Shown here: piece by piece, positions 11,921 through 51,877 of the stretch
How the letters are laid out: every line of letters starts with the position of its first letter
Position numbering within the stretch: the stretch's first letter is position 1
Made by a program: the position numbers and the translations under genes
Notes under the pieces: generated by a model
Database searches by the model: none
The model's input: only the letters and a program-made list of their open reading frames with translations
Told to the model about the DNA's origin: nothing
Assembly: GCA_964613815.1 (NCBI GenBank)
Contig: CAZTKG010000003.1
Span: forward strand, 1-52,902
DNA from: an uncultured Gammaproteobacteria bacterium
Lineage (GTDB): Bacteria; Patescibacteriota; Patescibacteriia; UBA9934
DNA length: 52,902 nt
Direction of reading: 5' to 3'

Positions 11921-13108
11921 TCACGGGAGGAGGCGCAGGTCGACCACCTGCTGCTTGACGGGGCGCGCGGGGCCGAAGAAGTTTCCTTCATGCCACTTGC
12001 CGTCGATGAGAAGGTAGAAGAGTGGCTGCTCGGGCTGACGCCTGCGATCGTTCGTGATGACGCGCGGGGGTGCGAGTGCGGAGACGCCCTCTCGCGTGGT
12101 CGCGATGATGATCGCGTCGGCCTTCTGGATGATGTTCGTCTTCCAGACGATCGCCATACCGCCGCCGTTGAGATCGCCGGTGAATAGGCGCTCGCCGTCG
12201 AACTTGAGCATGTCGATCTCGGCGAGAGGACTGAACCCGCCGATGAAGTTTCGCTTTGCCCTTGGCATGACGACACTGAGCTTCCCATCTGCGATGCCGA
12301 GGGCGGTGTCGCCGAAGGCGTCGTTCTCTGGGAGCTTGACGCGCTCATAGTAGTCACTGACGTAGTCCAGGTGAATGACTCTCGAGCCCTTCTTGTCCTG
12401 AAGGATGAAAACCGGACCGAGCCAACCGGGCATGTGATACAGCTCAGTGACCCTCTCCCCGCAGGCCATCCTGGACCCGGTGTAGATACACTCCTTACCC
12501 TTGAACGGAGCGACGTAGCACATCTTGCCGTTTTCGACATGGGGACGTGCGTCACCTGGTGCCTCGATCTTGGGATAGACCTCCCCCTTCCACACGAGCG
12601 CGTGGAGACCGGCGTACCGACTGGTCTCGTTCTCGAGATGCAGGAACCATGCCTCGGACCCTTCGAAGACACCTGCCGATGTCGCGGTCGTGATCGTCAT
12701 CTTGTCTGCGGACTGATTGGGCCTCAGGATGTAGACCTGGTGCAGCGTGCCGGCATCGTCCCTCAGTCCGCCGAGCGCGACGATGGAGTCGCTTTCTGCC
12801 CTGTAGGGATCCACCTCCCAGCACGGGAGCTCGACGCTGATCTCGATGCGGTAATCGCTCATCTCGGAAGACGCGAACGGACCTTCTTTGAGCACCACAT
12901 CTTCTGGGAGGAGGAAGTTGAACTTCTTGCCGATGACGAGGTTGTGGAACGCTCCGTTCCAGAAAGCGATGTAGCTGCGCTTGTGGTCGCTGTCCTCGAG
13001 GTCTCCCCAGCACTTCTGCTCCGGAGGAGACGACGGTGCAGCGGGCTCCTCGGCGAACGCAGAGGTGGTGAAGAGCGCTAGGAAAAGCGCGATTCGTCGA
13101 ATGAACAT
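11921..13108 (-). CDS. secreted beta-rich hypothetical protein
   Basis: Signal peptide ending SAFA-EE; Gly/aromatic-rich beta-hairpin-like segments; own promoter. Confidence 0.75.
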   Translation of the reverse strand: MFIRRIALFLALFTTSAFAEEPAAPSSPPEQKCWGDLEDSDHKRSYIAFWNGAFHNLVIGKKFNFLLPEDVVLKEGPFASSEMSDYRIEISVELPCWEVDPYRAESDSIVALGGLRDDAGTLHQVYILRPNQSADKMTITTATSAGVFEGSEAWFLHLENETSRYAGLHALVWKGEVYPKIEAPGDARPHVENGKMCYVAPFKGKECIYTGSRMACGERVTELYHMPGWLGPVFILQDKKGSRVIHLDYVSDYYERVKLPENDAFGDTALGIADGKLSVVMPRAKRNFIGGFSPLAEIDMLKFDGERLFTGDLNGGGMAIVWKTNIIQKADAIIIATTREGVSALAPPRVITNDRRRQPEQPLFYLLIDGKWHEGNFFGPARPVKQQVVDLRLLP

Positions 13109-25723: not shown

Positions 25724-26425
25724 CTACGGGGCCTGCTGCTTGCTGCGGTAGCTCTGGGCGACCTTTGTGATCATGCTCGACCAAGGTTCGCCAATCTTCG
25801 TGACCGTGTTGATGCGCTTGACCTCGAGGAGATCCAGCGCTGCCTGTAGCGGGGCACTTGCCTCGATGAAGACCTCGAGCTGGCCGGGAGCAATGAGGCG
25901 ACCGGTCATGAGGAGGTCCATCGCGATGTCCATGACCTTACCCTCAGACGCAGGCGTGGCTTGCGCTGCCTGGGTCCAGGTTGCGACCTCGGCTTCGATC
26001 TCGCTCTTGAGTTCCGTCATCCGCTTGAAGACGAGCTGCGTGTGACCGAGGGAGAGGTCTGCCATGCGGTCCAGGACCGAGACCATGAAGTCGACGCTGC
26101 GAGGCCACTCGATCCGCGGCGGGCGGTCGAACTGACCGCTCATGAGGGAGGCGATCTGAGCGTAGCTGCCGTCCTTGCCGGGCGATGCGGTCGCGACGGC
26201 CATGATGAGCTCTTCGGCCTTCTTGACGACAGTCATCGCGCGGCTCTCGAGTGCGTTCGCCCAGATGATCTCGATGATTCCTGAGACCGACGTGAGGGAG
26301 AACAGGAGGAGCGTCAGCTTGGCGACACTGCCCTTGTTGTCGATGTCGTAGCTGAGCGTGAGCGCGGTGAGAGAGGCGCAGACGACGAGAATTGCCCTGT
26401 TTGCCAGGCGAAGTTTGTTTGACAT
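25724..26425 (-). CDS. two-TM hypothetical protein, probable paralog array member 2 (most divergent)
   Basis: Two N-terminal TM helices with an NKG loop; C-terminal LIAPGQL...IGEPW; start placed at ATG 26425. Confidence 0.7.
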   Translation of the reverse strand: MSNKLRLANRAILVVCASLTALTLSYDIDNKGSVAKLTLLLFSLTSVSGIIEIIWANALESRAMTVVKKAEELIMAVATASPGKDGSYAQIASLMSGQFDRPPRIEWPRSVDFMVSVLDRMADLSLGHTQLVFKRMTELKSEIEAEVATWTQAAQATPASEGKVMDIAMDLLMTGRLIAPGQLEVFIEASAPLQAALDLLEVKRINTVTKIGEPWSSMITKVAQSYRSKQQAP

Positions 26426-26457
26426 GCAAGACTCCTGTGGAAGGTGCGTTGGGCCTG

Positions 26458-26486
26458 AAGTTAGCATTTTTTGTGGTTTTTGTCAA
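26458..26486 (-). promoter_or_regulatory. sigma70-type promoter
   Basis: TTGACA-N17(ending TGC)-TAACTT upstream of ATG 26425. Confidence 0.6.
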
Positions 26487-28965: not shown

Positions 28966-29817
28966 CTACTCGGGGGCGAGGGCAGCGACGCGGGGCGTGA
29001 TCGGCAGGAACTCGGGGACGGTGAAGTTCGGGTTCCGGTTGCCGATGTTGAGGCCCTCGACGACGATGCCGCTCGTCCTGGTCCGGTCCGGACCGATCGT
29101 CGGGATGAAGGTTCCGAACTGGCCCTTGGCGATGGCGTAGCGGAGGCCGGCCATGGCCATGCCGGGAAGCTCGCCCATGGACAGGGCCTTGAGGAGCTGC
29201 GGGAACTGCCAGAGCAGGGCCAGGAGCTCGATGCCCATGGAGCTCGTGCTCCTCGCGTCGGCGATGGAGCGTCGAACGGCGTGGCTGCTGAGATCGCAGG
29301 CGAACCACTCCAGGCCGGTGGCGACAGCTCGACTCCGACGGAACGGTCGGAGCGCGTCGGGGAGCTCCATCCAGACCGTGCCCGGGATCTCGAGCTCGGC
29401 GCCGAGGCGGCGGAGGATCTCCATGTTGGCGACGAACTCTCCCTGGATTTCGTCGGCGAGGTTGATGCGGACGCCGAGGAAGCTCATCGGCCCCTTCGGC
29501 CAGGACGGCGCTGCGGCGATGATGCGATCGATCTCCGCTTCGGGGATCTCGAGGTCGTACGCGTAGGCGGCGGCCTCGACCTGAGCGACGATGTCCTCGG
29601 GGTCCTTCTGGAAGGGGTTCTCGAGGTCGAGACGCAGGGCGTGCGAGATGGCCTGGGTCATCAGCTCCTTGCTGTCGGGGTCGCGCATGCGACCGTCGAG
29701 GCGATCGATGTCGACGTTGTTCGCGATCACGGTCGCGAGTCCGAGGACGTTGCCTGTGTAGGCGCGGAAGCGTCGCTGATCTGCGACTTCCTGAGCGGCG
29801 GTGGATTCTGCGGACAT
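28966..29817 (-). CDS. hypothetical protein
   Basis: Strong GC-rich codon bias; consensus promoter upstream; start placed at ATG 29817. Confidence 0.72.
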   Translation of the reverse strand: MSAESTAAQEVADQRRFRAYTGNVLGLATVIANNVDIDRLDGRMRDPDSKELMTQAISHALRLDLENPFQKDPEDIVAQVEAAAYAYDLEIPEAEIDRIIAAAPSWPKGPMSFLGVRINLADEIQGEFVANMEILRRLGAELEIPGTVWMELPDALRPFRRSRAVATGLEWFACDLSSHAVRRSIADARSTSSMGIELLALLWQFPQLLKALSMGELPGMAMAGLRYAIAKGQFGTFIPTIGPDRTRTSGIVVEGLNIGNRNPNFTVPEFLPITPRVAALAPE

Positions 29818-29872
29818 GATGGTCTCCTGATGGATGGAATGATCGGGGTGTGCACGGGTGTACAACTGGCGA

Positions 29873-29901
29873 ATATTAGCAGACTTCGTCGATTTTGTCA
29901 A
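29873..29901 (-). promoter_or_regulatory. sigma70-type promoter
   Basis: TTGACA-N17(ending TGC)-TAATAT. Confidence 0.6.
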
Positions 29902-48160: not shown

Positions 48161-48236
48161 AGATCTCTTCACAAGGTCGAGATGGGAAACGTAGAGGTCA
48201 TTCTTCATTTCCATCTCGACCGAAGTGGAGAGATCT
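48161..48236. repeat. REP-like inverted doublet, second copy (opposite arrangement)
   Basis: Right arm CCATCTCGACCGAAGTGGAGAGATCT matches the 29916 consensus at 24 of 26 positions; the left arm is a degenerate inverse. Confidence 0.75.
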
Positions 48237-48466
48237 TGTATTTTGCTTTTTTTCACCCTCCTGCTTTCCCTTATTTTCTTATATTTTTACTAAAATTAGC
48301 TATTTTTTTGTACTTTTAGCATCTTAATACTGTTCACCAAGTCTTGACAAAACCTGTTTTTTATGCTATATTGAACCCTTCGTCAAACTGACGAAACCCC
48401 TTCTTTCAACCGGATTCCTTAGCAATTTCTGCGACGGAGTCTTCCCTCTAAAACACTGGTCATTCC

Positions 48467-49156
48467 ATGGAGAACGAAATGACTCAGCGTGAGAACAACG
48501 GACGGCGCGGCGGACGTAGCAAGCGCGGACGGCGAGACGAGCGGCGGCCCCGGGAGACCGGTGGCAGCCAGGCGGAACAGAAGCTCCGCAACGCTCCAAG
48601 CCCGTTCGTCATCGGCGTCGATGCCCTGCACGGGTGGCGGCGCGGCGACGAGCCCTACTTCGCGAACGAAAAGCGGATGATGATGGCGCCCCTCAGGGCC
48701 CTCGTGGTCCTGGTGGGCACCAAGTTCGTGCGCGGTGGCCCGCATGCCATGCGGCGAGTGGCCGAGATCGGCTGTCAGGTCAAGCTCGAGTTCTTCCCCC
48801 AGGACGACCGGGTCCCGTACCCGGATACGGCCTGGATGGAGATGCGAAAGGCGAATGACGATGCGGCCGCAACCGAGCTCCTCATGTGGGCCCATCGTGC
48901 AGGCGTCTGCGTCTTGGATCTCGTCCCCACGGACGACATCCAGCGCTTCCGCTTCGAGAGCGACGCGGAGGCCGCGGCGCGAATCCTCGATGCCCTCAAG
49001 CCCGAGTTCGTGAGCGCAGCGGCGGCTATGATGGCTTCGGCCGGCATCGAGCTGCCCGCACCCGAGCCCGCCCCTGAGGCCGATGGCGAGGGCGAGGACC
49101 TCGAGCCGCCCGTCAACCTCGACGCGGCACGGGCCGCGCTCGAGGGCAATTCGTAG
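48467..49156 (+). CDS. hypothetical protein with Arg/Gly-rich N-terminus and acidic Pro-rich C-terminus
   Basis: 229 aa; GC-rich codon bias; upstream TTGACA-N17-TATATT. Confidence 0.7.
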   Translation: MENEMTQRENNGRRGGRSKRGRRDERRPRETGGSQAEQKLRNAPSPFVIGVDALHGWRRGDEPYFANEKRMMMAPLRALVVLVGTKFVRGGPHAMRRVAEIGCQVKLEFFPQDDRVPYPDTAWMEMRKANDDAAATELLMWAHRAGVCVLDLVPTDDIQRFRFESDAEAAARILDALKPEFVSAAAAMMASAGIELPAPEPAPEADGEGEDLEPPVNLDAARAALEGNS

Positions 49157-49184
49157 GCTCCGCTCCTTCCGCAACTCGACTCCC

Positions 49185-49532
49185 CCTCTCATCATCGCAT
49201 CTGCGGTGCTCTGAGAGGGATCACTCAAACATTCTGATGTGCCCACCCACATTGGGATGTTCGAGTGGACATTACAACTTAGCTGGAATTTTTCTTCTGT
49301 AATCACTCTTTTTGACATGAGTGCTGACAGAAGGAAAATTCTCATCACCCTGGAGGGGAGAGATGTGGCCTGCGGATGGGAGGAGGAGTCCCGCCGCGGT
49401 CGGTATACAAGTGCCTGGATTCGGCTTTTGCTGACCCCATGTACACGCCCGTATACCACTGAAGCACATTGCCCTTGGGCGATCACTGTTTCGTGCACTT
49501 GGCTTGCCTTGTGCCTCACCTCCAGATTGATG
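49185..49532. ncRNA. candidate structured non-coding RNA or 5' leader
   Basis: At least five predicted stems, including a 15-bp GAATTTTTCTTCTGT/ACAGAAGGAAAATTC and a long-range CTGGAGG/CCTCCAG pairing; no known family recognised. Confidence 0.35.
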
Positions 49533-49589
49533 GGAGTTTTCCCGTTTTTTCATAGCTACCCCTACCACTGCACATCATGGAGAACATTG

Positions 49590-51107
49590 ATGCAGTACTT
49601 CGAAAACCTGTTTCGGTCCGATGAGGACCCGCGAGAGTTTGTCCCCGCATGGGAGAACGAGCTCCAGCGGCGTACCATCGCCGCTCAGCGAACGCGGATG
49701 CGCTGGCACAAGCCCGCCACTCCTCGCGCGCGCAAGCGTTTCATGCAGCGACTCGAGAATGAGAGCGCTCGTCAGATGAGGACGTTCTCGAAGCGGAAGC
49801 GGCGGGCCTGGATCGGTCACCGCGGAACCAACGAGCTCACCCACGATCGGAACGGCAACGTTCGGATCGGTGACGAGAACACGTGGGACTGCCCCGACTG
49901 GGGCTACGACAACATGAGCGCTCCGCGGCCCGAACTGCAGCGGAAGCACGAGTGGGTGGAGATCAATGAGATCACGCCCTTCCACCTCGAGGCTGGATAC
50001 GAGGGCCACCAGGGCGACCTGATGGACCACGTTTTCCCCGACGAGTATGCGGATGACGGCGCGTGGGACGAGATGCTGTGTGAGGAGTTCGAGCGGCTCA
50101 AGAAGCTGCACGGCCTCCGCGACCGCGACTTCCACGACACCTTCTGTACGGACACCTCCGACGTGACGGAGGCAACGGCGATGTTCATCGACCGGAGCCG
50201 CCGCGCGACGGCGCAGACGAGTGACCTCAGCTATGATCAGCCCGCTCAGTCGAGCTCGAGCATGCAGCTCGATGAGATGTGGCGTCGGTCGAAGCTCGAA
50301 GAGCGCATCGATGATCGTTGGCACCGCCGATCTAGTGAGCCCAAGATGATGCTCGGACTCATTCGGGCTTCGAGCCCAATGAGTTCGGTCCGTCATAGCA
50401 GCGTCGTCATTCTCGACACGCCTCATATGCAGAAGTTCTTGGGCCGATATGCTCGCATTCGGCTCAAGGGCGGGCGACTCATCTGGATGCTCCACCCCAT
50501 GATGGACCCGCATTGCTGGATCTGCAATCGCTTGGACGCGATTTGCTCCCGCCACTATCGCCTGCGACAGGATCGTCCGCTCACGCGAGACGAATTCATC
50601 GCTTGGCGCGCACTGGAGCTGCGCGATCAGCTGGCACTGCTCGATCTGATCGACTGGGCGAGGGATAGCGCCTTTGCCCGTCAGAATGGACGGATGTATA
50701 TCGGGGATGCGTGCGGTCGCAAGCTGCATGAGATGACTGATGACGATATCGTCTCGTGGCGCTCCATGCCCCGCGAGGTTCGCGAGCAGCTTCTAGTGCC
50801 CGATGGTACCTGGTGTCTCGGACCCCGGCGACGTACCCGTCACCAGTCGTGGAAGTGCGGCACCAAGGTCCGCAAGACCTGGCAACGTCGCGTCATCGAT
50901 CGCCCCACGCGCAAGCGAAAGGCGAACCGGCGATGCACGACTGGCACCCTCGAGCTGAGCCGTGTTGGCAAGTACGAGCCAGCCTCCGCGTCTGTGCTTG
51001 GCAAGGTCCCTCACCGATGGACGTACGCGGATGACCTCGTCGTTCGTCGCTGGGCAGCCACTGAGTCTTCCTGCGACTGCGATGACACTCGCTCTATCGC
51101 GGCGTAG
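49590..51107 (+). CDS. orphan 505-aa protein with putative Zn site and basic C-terminus
   Basis: GGAGAA RBS before ATG 49590; HCWICNRLDAICSRH motif; Arg/Lys/Trp-rich tail. Confidence 0.65.
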   Translation: MQYFENLFRSDEDPREFVPAWENELQRRTIAAQRTRMRWHKPATPRARKRFMQRLENESARQMRTFSKRKRRAWIGHRGTNELTHDRNGNVRIGDENTWDCPDWGYDNMSAPRPELQRKHEWVEINEITPFHLEAGYEGHQGDLMDHVFPDEYADDGAWDEMLCEEFERLKKLHGLRDRDFHDTFCTDTSDVTEATAMFIDRSRRATAQTSDLSYDQPAQSSSSMQLDEMWRRSKLEERIDDRWHRRSSEPKMMLGLIRASSPMSSVRHSSVVILDTPHMQKFLGRYARIRLKGGRLIWMLHPMMDPHCWICNRLDAICSRHYRLRQDRPLTRDEFIAWRALELRDQLALLDLIDWARDSAFARQNGRMYIGDACGRKLHEMTDDDIVSWRSMPREVREQLLVPDGTWCLGPRRRTRHQSWKCGTKVRKTWQRRVIDRPTRKRKANRRCTTGTLELSRVGKYEPASASVLGKVPHRWTYADDLVVRRWAATESSCDCDDTRSIAA

Positions 51108-51118
51108 CCCCTGTTCGT

Positions 51119-51150
51119 GCCTAGGGGATGACCCTGTTCATCCCCTAGGC
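51119..51150. terminator. 13-bp perfect hairpin after the orphan ORF
   Basis: GCCTAGGGGATGA-CCCTGT-TCATCCCCTAGGC; no clear T-run. Confidence 0.45.
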
Positions 51151-51234
51151 CCTACCGTTTTGACCAGAAATGCGTTTCTGAGCAGAACGGTAAGTCAATT
51201 CTTTCAACCCATTTCTGAGCTGAAACTGTAGAGA

Positions 51235-51687
51235 TTGGAGAGAATAGCTGATATTTATGCAATGCAAAGATGGGAAGCTAGCAAGAAACGCCGGGAGCAG
51301 TACCTTGCCCTGAAAAGACTCGAAAAACGTAGACTTATTAAGCTACGTAAAGAAGGTCAACGACTCTATGTATCTCTCACTAATGTCGGCCGAATTGAAG
51401 CTCTTCTCGCCTCGATGAAGGAGTGTCGCGAGCTCTATCCTGATGGAGAATATTGTATGATTATCTACGATGTTCCTGAAGATATACGACGTATACGTGG
51501 AACAATACGCCGTCTTGTAAAAACCCTTGCCTTTAGGCAGCTGCAAAGAAGTGTGTGGGTTACTCGTCACAAGATTCATCGGTCTTTGTCAGAATATCTC
51601 CTTGCTACCAAATCTGATAAATACATCAAAGTTTTTACCGTGAGAAATCTTGATGCCGAGAGTCTATTCTCGGATGATCCTGCCTGA
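51235..51687 (+). CDS. PaaX-like protein (wHTH + Cas2-like domain)
   Basis: LKRLEKRRLI...SLTNVG winged-helix segment followed by DGEYCMIIYDVPEDIRRIRGTIRR...FRQLQRSVWV; true start uncertain. Confidence 0.75.
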   Translation: MERIADIYAMQRWEASKKRREQYLALKRLEKRRLIKLRKEGQRLYVSLTNVGRIEALLASMKECRELYPDGEYCMIIYDVPEDIRRIRGTIRRLVKTLAFRQLQRSVWVTRHKIHRSLSEYLLATKSDKYIKVFTVRNLDAESLFSDDPA

Positions 51688-51730
51688 TACAAAAGTGGTC
51701 CGTACGGACCACTTTTGTATCAGGCAGGAT
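51677..51730. repeat. perfect 54-bp palindrome with no loop
   Basis: ATCCTGCCTGATACAAAAGTGGTCCGT|ACGGACCACTTTTGTATCAGGCAGGAT. Confidence 0.95.
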
Positions 51731-51877
51731 GATGTATGTCTTTGTCATAAATGATCTGTGTGATCGTTCATGGCTGGATCGTGAACTGCTGCCCGGTGTG
51801 GCACTGGCGAGTCGTGATGTGCAGCTCCGGACTTGTAGACCGTCTATCATCGATCATGGATCGGGATCGCTTGAGGT

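Follow-up and report, generated by a model that had tools for sequence, protein, structure and literature searches.

An order-wide family of structured non-coding RNA in Patescibacteriota, often flanked by hypervariable orphan genes

We describe an order-wide family of structured non-coding RNA in Patescibacteriota, represented by positions 49333–49552 (plus strand) of a 52,902-nt stretch of DNA, referred to here as the window (contig CAZTKG010000003.1, assembly GCA_964613815.1). The genome to which the window belongs comprises 1.05 Mb in 18 contigs, with 50% G+C and 96.6% completeness. The RNA occupies the 3' half of a 433-nt gap (49157–49589, plus strand) that separates two plus-strand orphan open reading frames (ORFs), ORF1 (48467–49156) and ORF2 (49590–51107). 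An initial annotation, made from the sequence alone, regarded the entire gap of some 430 nt as a single large structured RNA, perhaps a regulatory leader or an RNA partner of the protein encoded downstream; this holds for the 3' half on the plus strand, but not for the gap as a whole, as only 49333–49552 is conserved. Taken together, the observations are best explained by a stable, trans-acting non-coding RNA accompanied by lineage-specific 5' hairpins, a reading to which we assign a probability of roughly 60%. No description of the family was found in the literature on structured RNAs of the candidate phyla radiation (CPR).

Homologues were recovered by sequence and then by covariance model. 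The stretch containing ORF1, the RNA and ORF2 is bordered upstream by holB (minus strand) and downstream by a PaaX/Cas2-like gene and a trmB-like regulator. When the 433 nt were compared by blastn with 162 genomes of the order, query positions 181–381 alone (window 49337–49537) found matches, in five genomes of the same family; holB and the trmB-like gene both flank three of these loci, and the rest have the trmB-like gene only or, in one case, neither. Six sequences were aligned with MAFFT and folded with RNAalifold, which yielded 65 base pairs, 35 of them compensatory, and the covariance model built from this alignment (R1) detected one full-length copy in 44 of the 68 genomes of the family. 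With a further model, built from 40 sequences (R2), 128 of 151 genomes of the order gave a full-length match (113 of the 129 of high quality; 50 of 55 genera), usually with one to three copies per genome and with one in the window genome. Beyond the order, a sample of the class yielded two weaker matches only, in two other families, and both fold with the closing helices, purine-rich block and apical GGC/GCU hairpin of the family. Since holB is the divergent neighbour of the RNA in 40 loci across the order, the RNA gene must be old and vertically inherited.

The predicted structure is supported by covariation, a test that the initial annotation had proposed. In the 40-sequence alignment, which was fitted to the model, 93% of cells at paired positions are standard-paired, against 69% after column shuffling and 38% with slid partners; both sides change in 48 of 53 pairs, and none of 500 shuffles reached the observed values. 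When 45 sequences from several families were aligned by MAFFT alone and folded with RNAalifold, P1, P2, the tip of P4, P5 and P6 were recovered, with compensatory changes in 23 of 29 pairs. G·U cells number 170 and A·C cells 47, and one G·U pair is invariant in all 40 sequences; this excess indicates that the RNA is read from the plus strand, and the preference for one strand that had been read from G-U pairs in the window is thereby upheld across the family.

The elements of the RNA in the window are as follows; helix coordinates were taken from the fold and agree with the consensus structure.

49333–49552, plus strand: conserved structured RNA; covariance-model match at 49343–49533, scoring 174 bits with R1 and 144 bits with R2.
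49333–49347 / 49528–49542, plus strand: P1, 15 pairs formed by the two ends of the RNA, followed by CG and six T.
49350–49356 / 49519–49525, with 49358–49360 / 49515–49517, plus strand: P2.
49367–49401, plus strand: variable hairpin 2a, with a GGAGGAG loop.
49402–49408 / 49451–49457, plus strand: P3.
49411–49444, plus strand: P4 hairpin.
49460–49492, plus strand: P5/P6 hairpin, holding the invariant GAUCACUG at 49481–49488.
49494–49513, plus strand: variable hairpin P7.

Family members are 153–217 nt long and share six conserved helices, P1 and P2 together contributing about 25 pairs. This terminal helix closes a junction composed of a variable hairpin with a purine-rich, GGAGG-type loop, the long irregular P3/P4, and P5/P6 with its invariant asymmetric internal loop. 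Invariant sequence is confined to a few blocks: CUGGAGG/CCUCCAG in P2, the purine run after P2, the GGC/GCU tip of P4, and CAYAU/RUCACUG around the 1x3 internal loop of P5/P6. Hairpin loops are variable or of UUCG type, and a search found no pseudoknot, known tertiary motif or convincing covarying pair beyond the six helices. The stems named in the initial annotation are all present, with coordinates exact or within one base. These include the long-range pairing CATCA..CTGGAGG (49343–49356) with CCTCCAG..TGATG (49519–49532), now confirmed by covariation in relatives, and the GCGG/GGGA hairpin, GGTATAC/GTATACC and ATTGCCC/GGGCGAT that it encloses; the extent of the long-range helix had been understated, as it reaches 49333–49347 / 49528–49542. 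A small ORF initiated within the RNA from GGAGG-N6-AUG (AUG 49363) was considered and rejected, since the AUG is missing from many members and the length of the segment that follows ignores frame.

Folding energies agree with these results. The plus strand of 49157–49589 folds at −173.8 kcal/mol, compared with −132.1 ± 6.1 for 100 dinucleotide shuffles (z-score −6.85; no shuffle equalled it), so that the energy test proposed at the outset places the gap well beyond its controls; the minus strand reaches −154.5 kcal/mol (z −3.0). Folded alone, the 3' domain (49333–49547) has a z of −6.4 on the plus strand and is weaker on the minus strand. The initial annotation had also considered translation of an in-frame ORF2 extension from 49239. 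This segment bears no coding signature in G+C by codon position (0.42/0.55/0.57, against 0.62/0.48/0.77 in ORF2), and variation among homologues of the RNA has no three-nucleotide periodicity and produces lengths that are not multiples of three, from which it follows that the segment is not evolving as coding sequence.

Upstream of the conserved RNA, the gap contains three strong hairpins and one candidate promoter.

49184–49219, plus strand: hairpin 1, in which CCCTCTCA (49184–49191) pairs with TGAGAGGG (49212–49219), 28 nt past the ORF1 stop; z −4.6 on the plus and −3.2 on the minus strand.
49222–49267, plus strand: hairpin 2, 19 pairs including three G·U; z −5.4 on the plus and −3.3 on the minus strand.
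49285–49342, plus strand: hairpin 3; z −7.2 on the plus strand, weaker on the minus strand.
49312–49339, plus strand: weaker promoter-like site in the loop of hairpin 3, TTGACA-16-GAAAAT, 10 of 12 positions.

These hairpins have no counterpart in relatives, either by blastn against the 162 genomes of the order or in the alignments, and no second copy in the genome; they are lineage-specific structures of the spacer between ORF1 and the RNA. In relatives with an upstream ORF, the part of the spacer examined before the RNA often holds a strong hairpin, unrelated in sequence to hairpins 1–3; the latter may act as protectors of a 3' end or as processing signals. Hairpin 3 and P1 compete, since the 3' arm of the former overlaps the 5' strand of the latter, and a transcript begun at the promoter-like site would start inside P1 and lose the outer part of that helix. 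REP-like (repetitive extragenic palindromic) or MITE-like (miniature inverted-repeat transposable element) hairpin repeats were rejected as an identity for these structures: many dispersed copies would be expected, and the 433-nt region, like each of its hairpins, occurs once in the 1.05-Mb genome.

Insertions and repeats were seen around the RNA in some relatives. At one locus (L004; G049:C12, ~1500–1830) the RNA is interrupted within the 3' strand of P4 by a hairpin-forming, MITE-like repeat of about 150 nt, of which a second copy lies just upstream of the same RNA and a related copy upstream of the RNA at another locus (L007, in G048). At L003/L016 (G067:C21) a 1.2-kb gap free of ORFs lies downstream of the RNA and carries several ~40-nt repeats in an irregular array, about 600–1150 nt downstream of holB, with the core GAATGACGG...GATTCTTCG...TTCACG.

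Signals for transcription suggest that the RNA is in many relatives a gene in its own right. Two elements are relevant in the window.

48344–48372, plus strand: strong sigma-70-type promoter, TTGACA, 17 nt, TG-TATATT; 11 of 12 consensus positions and an extended −10.
49533–49552, plus strand: terminator-like end of the RNA, comprising either a GGGA/UCCC hairpin or the P1 3' strand, followed by six T at 49545–49550; terminator-scan match at 49529–49546.

The promoter lies 999 nt upstream of the RNA model match and probably starts a transcript that includes both ORF1 and the RNA. It is not dedicated to the RNA, a notion that we rejected because promoters of this type are generic to these bacteria: the window genome contains 42, one of them ahead of RNase P RNA. 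A similar arrangement is found at 14 loci including the window, where the promoter is 600–1400 nt upstream and a same-strand ORF usually stands between it and the RNA. At 13 loci of the family, a strong consensus promoter (TTGACA, A-tract, T-tract, TG-n-TATATT) is instead placed 54–130 nt upstream with no ORF between, and the resulting leader pairs with the trailer, lengthening P1. At the other end, 16 of 50 homologous loci have a hairpin and T-run within ~70 nt past the RNA, ahead of the convergent trmB-like gene. A free-standing gene with promoter and intrinsic terminator in so many relatives means that the RNA is not primarily a leader of ORF2, and the initial suggestion of a regulatory leader or partner of the downstream orphan fails as a general rule.

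The two orphans beside the RNA belong, by appearance, to a wider set of hypervariable genes with high G+C at the third codon position (GC3).

48467–49156, plus strand: ORF1, a 229-aa orphan between the promoter and the RNA, codon-position G+C 0.73/0.48/0.84.
49590–51107, plus strand: ORF2, a 505-aa orphan (ATG 49590; Shine-Dalgarno GGAG at 49579–49582, 7 nt before the ATG), codon-position G+C 0.62/0.48/0.77.
51119–51150, plus strand: perfect 13-bp hairpin (inverted repeat) after ORF2, probably the end of the unit.

Median GC3 in this genome is 0.54 and the 95th percentile 0.71, and just 14 of 629 long ORFs reach 0.77. Neither ORF matches a Pfam family (at E of 1 or less) or a PHROGs family. 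ORF1 has no relatives among 5.8 billion proteins, ORF2 finds only itself there and among 1.84 billion representatives, and for both no relatives were found among PDB sequences, the ESM Atlas, scans of genome, viral and metagenome contigs, or the 68 genomes of the family. AlphaFold modelled ORF1 too poorly for a structure search (predicted local distance difference test, pLDDT, 43.5). The tails of ORF2 are basic and rich in Trp; a YADD near its C-terminus was considered as a reverse-transcriptase motif and dismissed, being isolated, at the very end of the protein and missing in relatives. Public gene calls give ORF2 as 505, 596 (ATG 49317) or 616 aa; the longer two start inside or upstream of the RNA and run through it, and should be cut to 505 aa, which from its sequence context is likely to be the true gene. 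In another public version of ORF2 (P0004, from JGI, on contigs of at most 3.4 kb), five substitutions fall within the nine residues 27–35 (window ~49665–49700), RRTIAAQRT to KRAVNAQRM, and the rest is identical; this represents either a local hypervariable patch or an assembly chimera.

Similar ORFs accompany the RNA elsewhere. At about 27 of 50 loci its immediate neighbour is a same-strand ORF with GC3 of at least 0.7, upstream in 20 loci (one being an antisense artefact of holB) and downstream in about 16, counting ORF2. Homology among these flanking ORFs can be detected between close relatives only, and not between genera or families, although profiles unite an upstream-ORF family of 11 members from several genera, for which an all-alpha model (pLDDT 72) has no significant match in PDB or BFVD. 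ORF1 and ORF2 are linked to relatives' ORFs at motif level only (hhalign E of 0.016 and 0.043), which is suggestive at best, and seven flanking ORFs of relatives gave no Pfam match except one below threshold (E 0.027). In one family (f4), genomes often contain two or three full-length copies of the RNA, placed in tandem 15–20 nt apart, or 1–4 kb apart with one or two high-GC3 ORFs between them, that is, as repeated RNA-ORF units (L069 1501–1863, L075 2245–2625, L072, L073 and L076 provide examples of multiple copies). Within the window, three further ORFs have GC3 of 0.80–0.87 and no Pfam family (11921–13108, 25724–26467 and 28966–29901, all minus strand); strong consensus promoters immediately precede two of them (at 26486 and 29901, minus strand). 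ORF1 and ORF2 appear to belong with these in a hypervariable class of high-GC3 orphans. The association of such ORFs with the RNA is real. A foreign, G+C-rich island inserted as one piece was rejected, because the RNA in the middle of that island is ancestral at the site.

Several structures were noted at the edges of the locus. A REP-like palindromic doublet at 48161–48236 separates the 48344 promoter from the probable true start of holB, and its arms recur on other contigs from the same samples, with a higher summed depth. Overlapping the PaaX/Cas2-like stop codon is a near-perfect 60-bp palindrome without a loop (51674–51733; arms of 30 nt, 97% complementary). In contigs from four DNA runs the locus shows neither variants nor an empty site; we discount one apparent joint (48189 to 51679), whose shorter side spans just 22 letters.

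Known housekeeping RNAs do not account for the family. The Rfam scan recommended in the initial annotation (for RNase P, 6S, tmRNA and intron families) was carried out with all 4227 models of Rfam 15, on 4.5 kb and on the domain alone with lax filters, and matched no family at 49157–49589; the best overlapping matches score 10–22 bits against thresholds of 35–93, all with E of at least 0.4. Nor did the RNA at six relatives' loci match anything in Rfam with E of 0.1 or less. Identity with RNase P RNA or tmRNA was rejected, as these genes are located on contigs C5 and C2 respectively, and ARAGORN finds no tRNA-like gene or module in 48300–51300. Identity with the signal recognition particle (SRP) RNA was rejected because helix-8 motifs (the GNRA tetraloop and others) are missing and the partner protein was not found. 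Models RF00169, RF01854 and RF01857 have no match in the window genome or in 26 genomes of the order; the SRP54 M domain (PF02978) and SRP54 GTPase domain (PF00448; Ffh, FtsY) have none in the window genome, and six-frame translation reveals no SRP GTPase (DTAGR-type) motif set. In the 26 genomes of the order, PF00448 gives marginal P-loop matches only (19–23 bits); a 61-genome sample of the class gives one 29-bit match over half the domain, and five further named genomes none. Loss of ffh and ffs has already been reported for Parcubacteria, in a paper whose text is silent on FtsY (PMC4508563); here, FtsY too was not found in the window genome or in the order and class samples.

We favour a model in which the RNA acts in trans as a stable molecule, a mode of action to which we give about one chance in two. 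In the window genome, the RNA would be transcribed from the 48344 promoter through ORF1, and its 3' end would be set by the terminal helix or by the GGGA/UCCC hairpin with its U6 tract (49545–49550), which should also limit read-through into ORF2. Once the 5' part of the transcript was trimmed, the sealed ends would shield the RNA, and hairpins 1–3 may at that stage guard the ORF1 message at its 3' end. The invariant loops would present a surface for a partner, and high-GC3 hypervariable orphans would repeatedly have come to adjoin the RNA gene. Several points weigh against this model. In the window genome the sole strong promoter is about 1 kb upstream, so the RNA could be a mere part of an mRNA; stability and action in trans are inferences, as are the ends and 5' processing of the transcript; and the 40-sequence alignment, being fitted to the model, is biased towards structure, leaving the six- and 45-sequence MAFFT alignments as the unbiased checks. 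The repeated RNA-ORF units of one family and the frequency of flanking ORFs would also fit a role in cis or with a protein partner.

The latter point is developed most fully if the RNA is seen as a subunit or cis module of a hypervariable, highly expressed orphan-protein locus, whose ORFs bind it or need it so that the shared transcript can be processed, kept stable or translated. Such a locus would account for adjacent high-GC3 ORFs at more than half of the 50 loci, when that class makes up ~2% of the long ORFs in the window genome, and for a promoter that precedes the upstream ORF where one exists, implying co-transcription of ORF and RNA; it would also fit the repeated and sometimes tandem copies in one family, the 11-member upstream-ORF family across several genera, the basic, Trp-rich tails of ORF2 and the weak motif-level links to relatives' ORFs. 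Yet at about 20 of the 50 loci the RNA stands by itself, has a promoter and a terminator to itself and is equally conserved; the flanking ORFs are without detectable homology between genera or families, ORF1 and ORF2 are without relatives, and the other high-GC3 orphans of the window are far from the only RNA copy in the genome. We consider a locus of this kind possible but doubtful. Similarly tentative is a proposal that gives priority to the RNA, as the fixed anchor of a hypervariable expression locus in which strongly expressed orphan genes would time and again be captured, or arise, on one flank or the other and be co-transcribed with it. One possibility is that the anchor forms the constant part of a ribonucleoprotein, the proteins of which evolve beyond recognition; another is that it is a portable processing, stability or translation module for any neighbour.

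The remaining explanations carry less weight. A riboswitch-like leader or attenuator of ORF2 might be suspected from the terminator-like hairpin and U-tract that end 27 nt before the ORF2 Shine-Dalgarno, from the overlap of the P1 3' strand with this weak terminator hairpin, which would allow two alternative folds (not conserved as a switch in relatives), and from the same-strand ORFs that start within 300 nt downstream of the RNA at about 16 of 50 loci. Riboswitches and other cis leaders reside in the 5' untranslated region of the gene that they control, and usually serve genes of related function; here, at least 16 loci have an immediate terminator and then the convergent trmB-like gene, the downstream ORFs are mutually unrelated, a constant sensor before changing or absent genes would be unlike known riboswitches, and no Rfam riboswitch matches, which makes a leader unlikely. 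That the family is a known housekeeping RNA in very divergent form, with a 6S-like regulator of RNA polymerase as the best candidate, is in our estimation quite improbable. The attractions of this reading are a length of ~190 nt, paired ends, a strong promoter, near-universal presence in the order at one to three copies per genome, possible co-transcription with a downstream ORF, and a vacancy, in that the 6S model RF00013 finds no 6S in the window genome (though it detects 6S in only five of 14 control genomes). Against it, RF00013 does not match the RNA alone with lax filters up to E of 10, the would-be bubble strands form hairpins supported by covariation, and the other housekeeping candidates are excluded (SRP RNA) or located elsewhere in the genome (RNase P RNA, tmRNA). 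That the stems are inverted repeats acting as DNA (protein-binding sites, an origin or repeats), or that the region is coding, is very unlikely indeed. The ORF2 frame is open back to 49215 (chance ~0.005 for one given frame, 0.034 for any of six) and public gene calls reach into the region, but 17 of 40 RNA homologues also have some open frame by chance, codon periodicity is missing, the genome contains a single copy, and folding asymmetry between strands, the G·U excess and compensatory changes amid sequence drift all point to RNA.

The CPR (Patescibacteria) represent a large share of bacterial diversity and, to our knowledge, almost nothing is known of their non-coding RNAs. Comparable conservation has earlier marked biochemically important RNAs such as 6S, OLE, raiA and riboswitches. 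The present family offers metatranscriptomics, structure probing and pull-downs something definite to aim at in bacteria that cannot yet be cultured alone, and its association with fast-evolving, presumably strongly expressed orphan genes may show how tiny genomes gain or hold new genes. If true, the anchor proposal would describe an RNA-anchored gene-cassette system of an undescribed kind, in a class without an SRP pathway.

Among known systems, 6S RNA resembles the family in size, in the long closing helix of paired ends, in its strong promoter and in being a near-universal, housekeeping-like gene in one to few copies, sometimes co-transcribed with a downstream ORF, as Escherichia coli ssrS is with ygfA. 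However, 6S RNA (~180–200 nt) has two long helices and, between them, a large central bubble that is mostly single-stranded, whereas here a junction of several hairpins takes the place of the bubble: hairpin 2a and P5/P6, supported by covariation, fill both strands between P2 and P3, and the CUGGAGG/CCUCCAG and GAUCACUG blocks have no counterpart in 6S. Omega RNAs, bridge RNAs and the msr-msd of retrons are likewise structured RNAs of 150–300 nt directly upstream of a same-strand ORF; identity with these was rejected because the flanking ORFs contain no reverse transcriptase, IscB/TnpB nuclease or IS110 recombinase domain, and the RNA described here is, unlike them, vertically inherited at a fixed chromosomal site, often without an adjacent ORF. 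The YrlA Y RNA, encoded beside rsr, differs in its tRNA-like module, which ARAGORN does not find here, and in its Ro/Rsr-like neighbour, for which Pfam searches of the flanking ORFs give no equivalent; in both, a long helix of 5' and 3' ends with conserved nucleotides closes a module of several helices, with possible protein partners adjacent. OLE, ROOL and GOLLD are much larger, the Rfam 15 models show no sequence or structure match, and OLE has the conserved oapA beside it where the neighbours here are hypervariable. What the family shares with OLE (with oapA), the raiA motif, ROOL and GOLLD is that each is a well-conserved, lineage-restricted RNA, supported by covariation and of unknown biochemistry, and, like OLE, it can sit in an operon beside possible partner genes.

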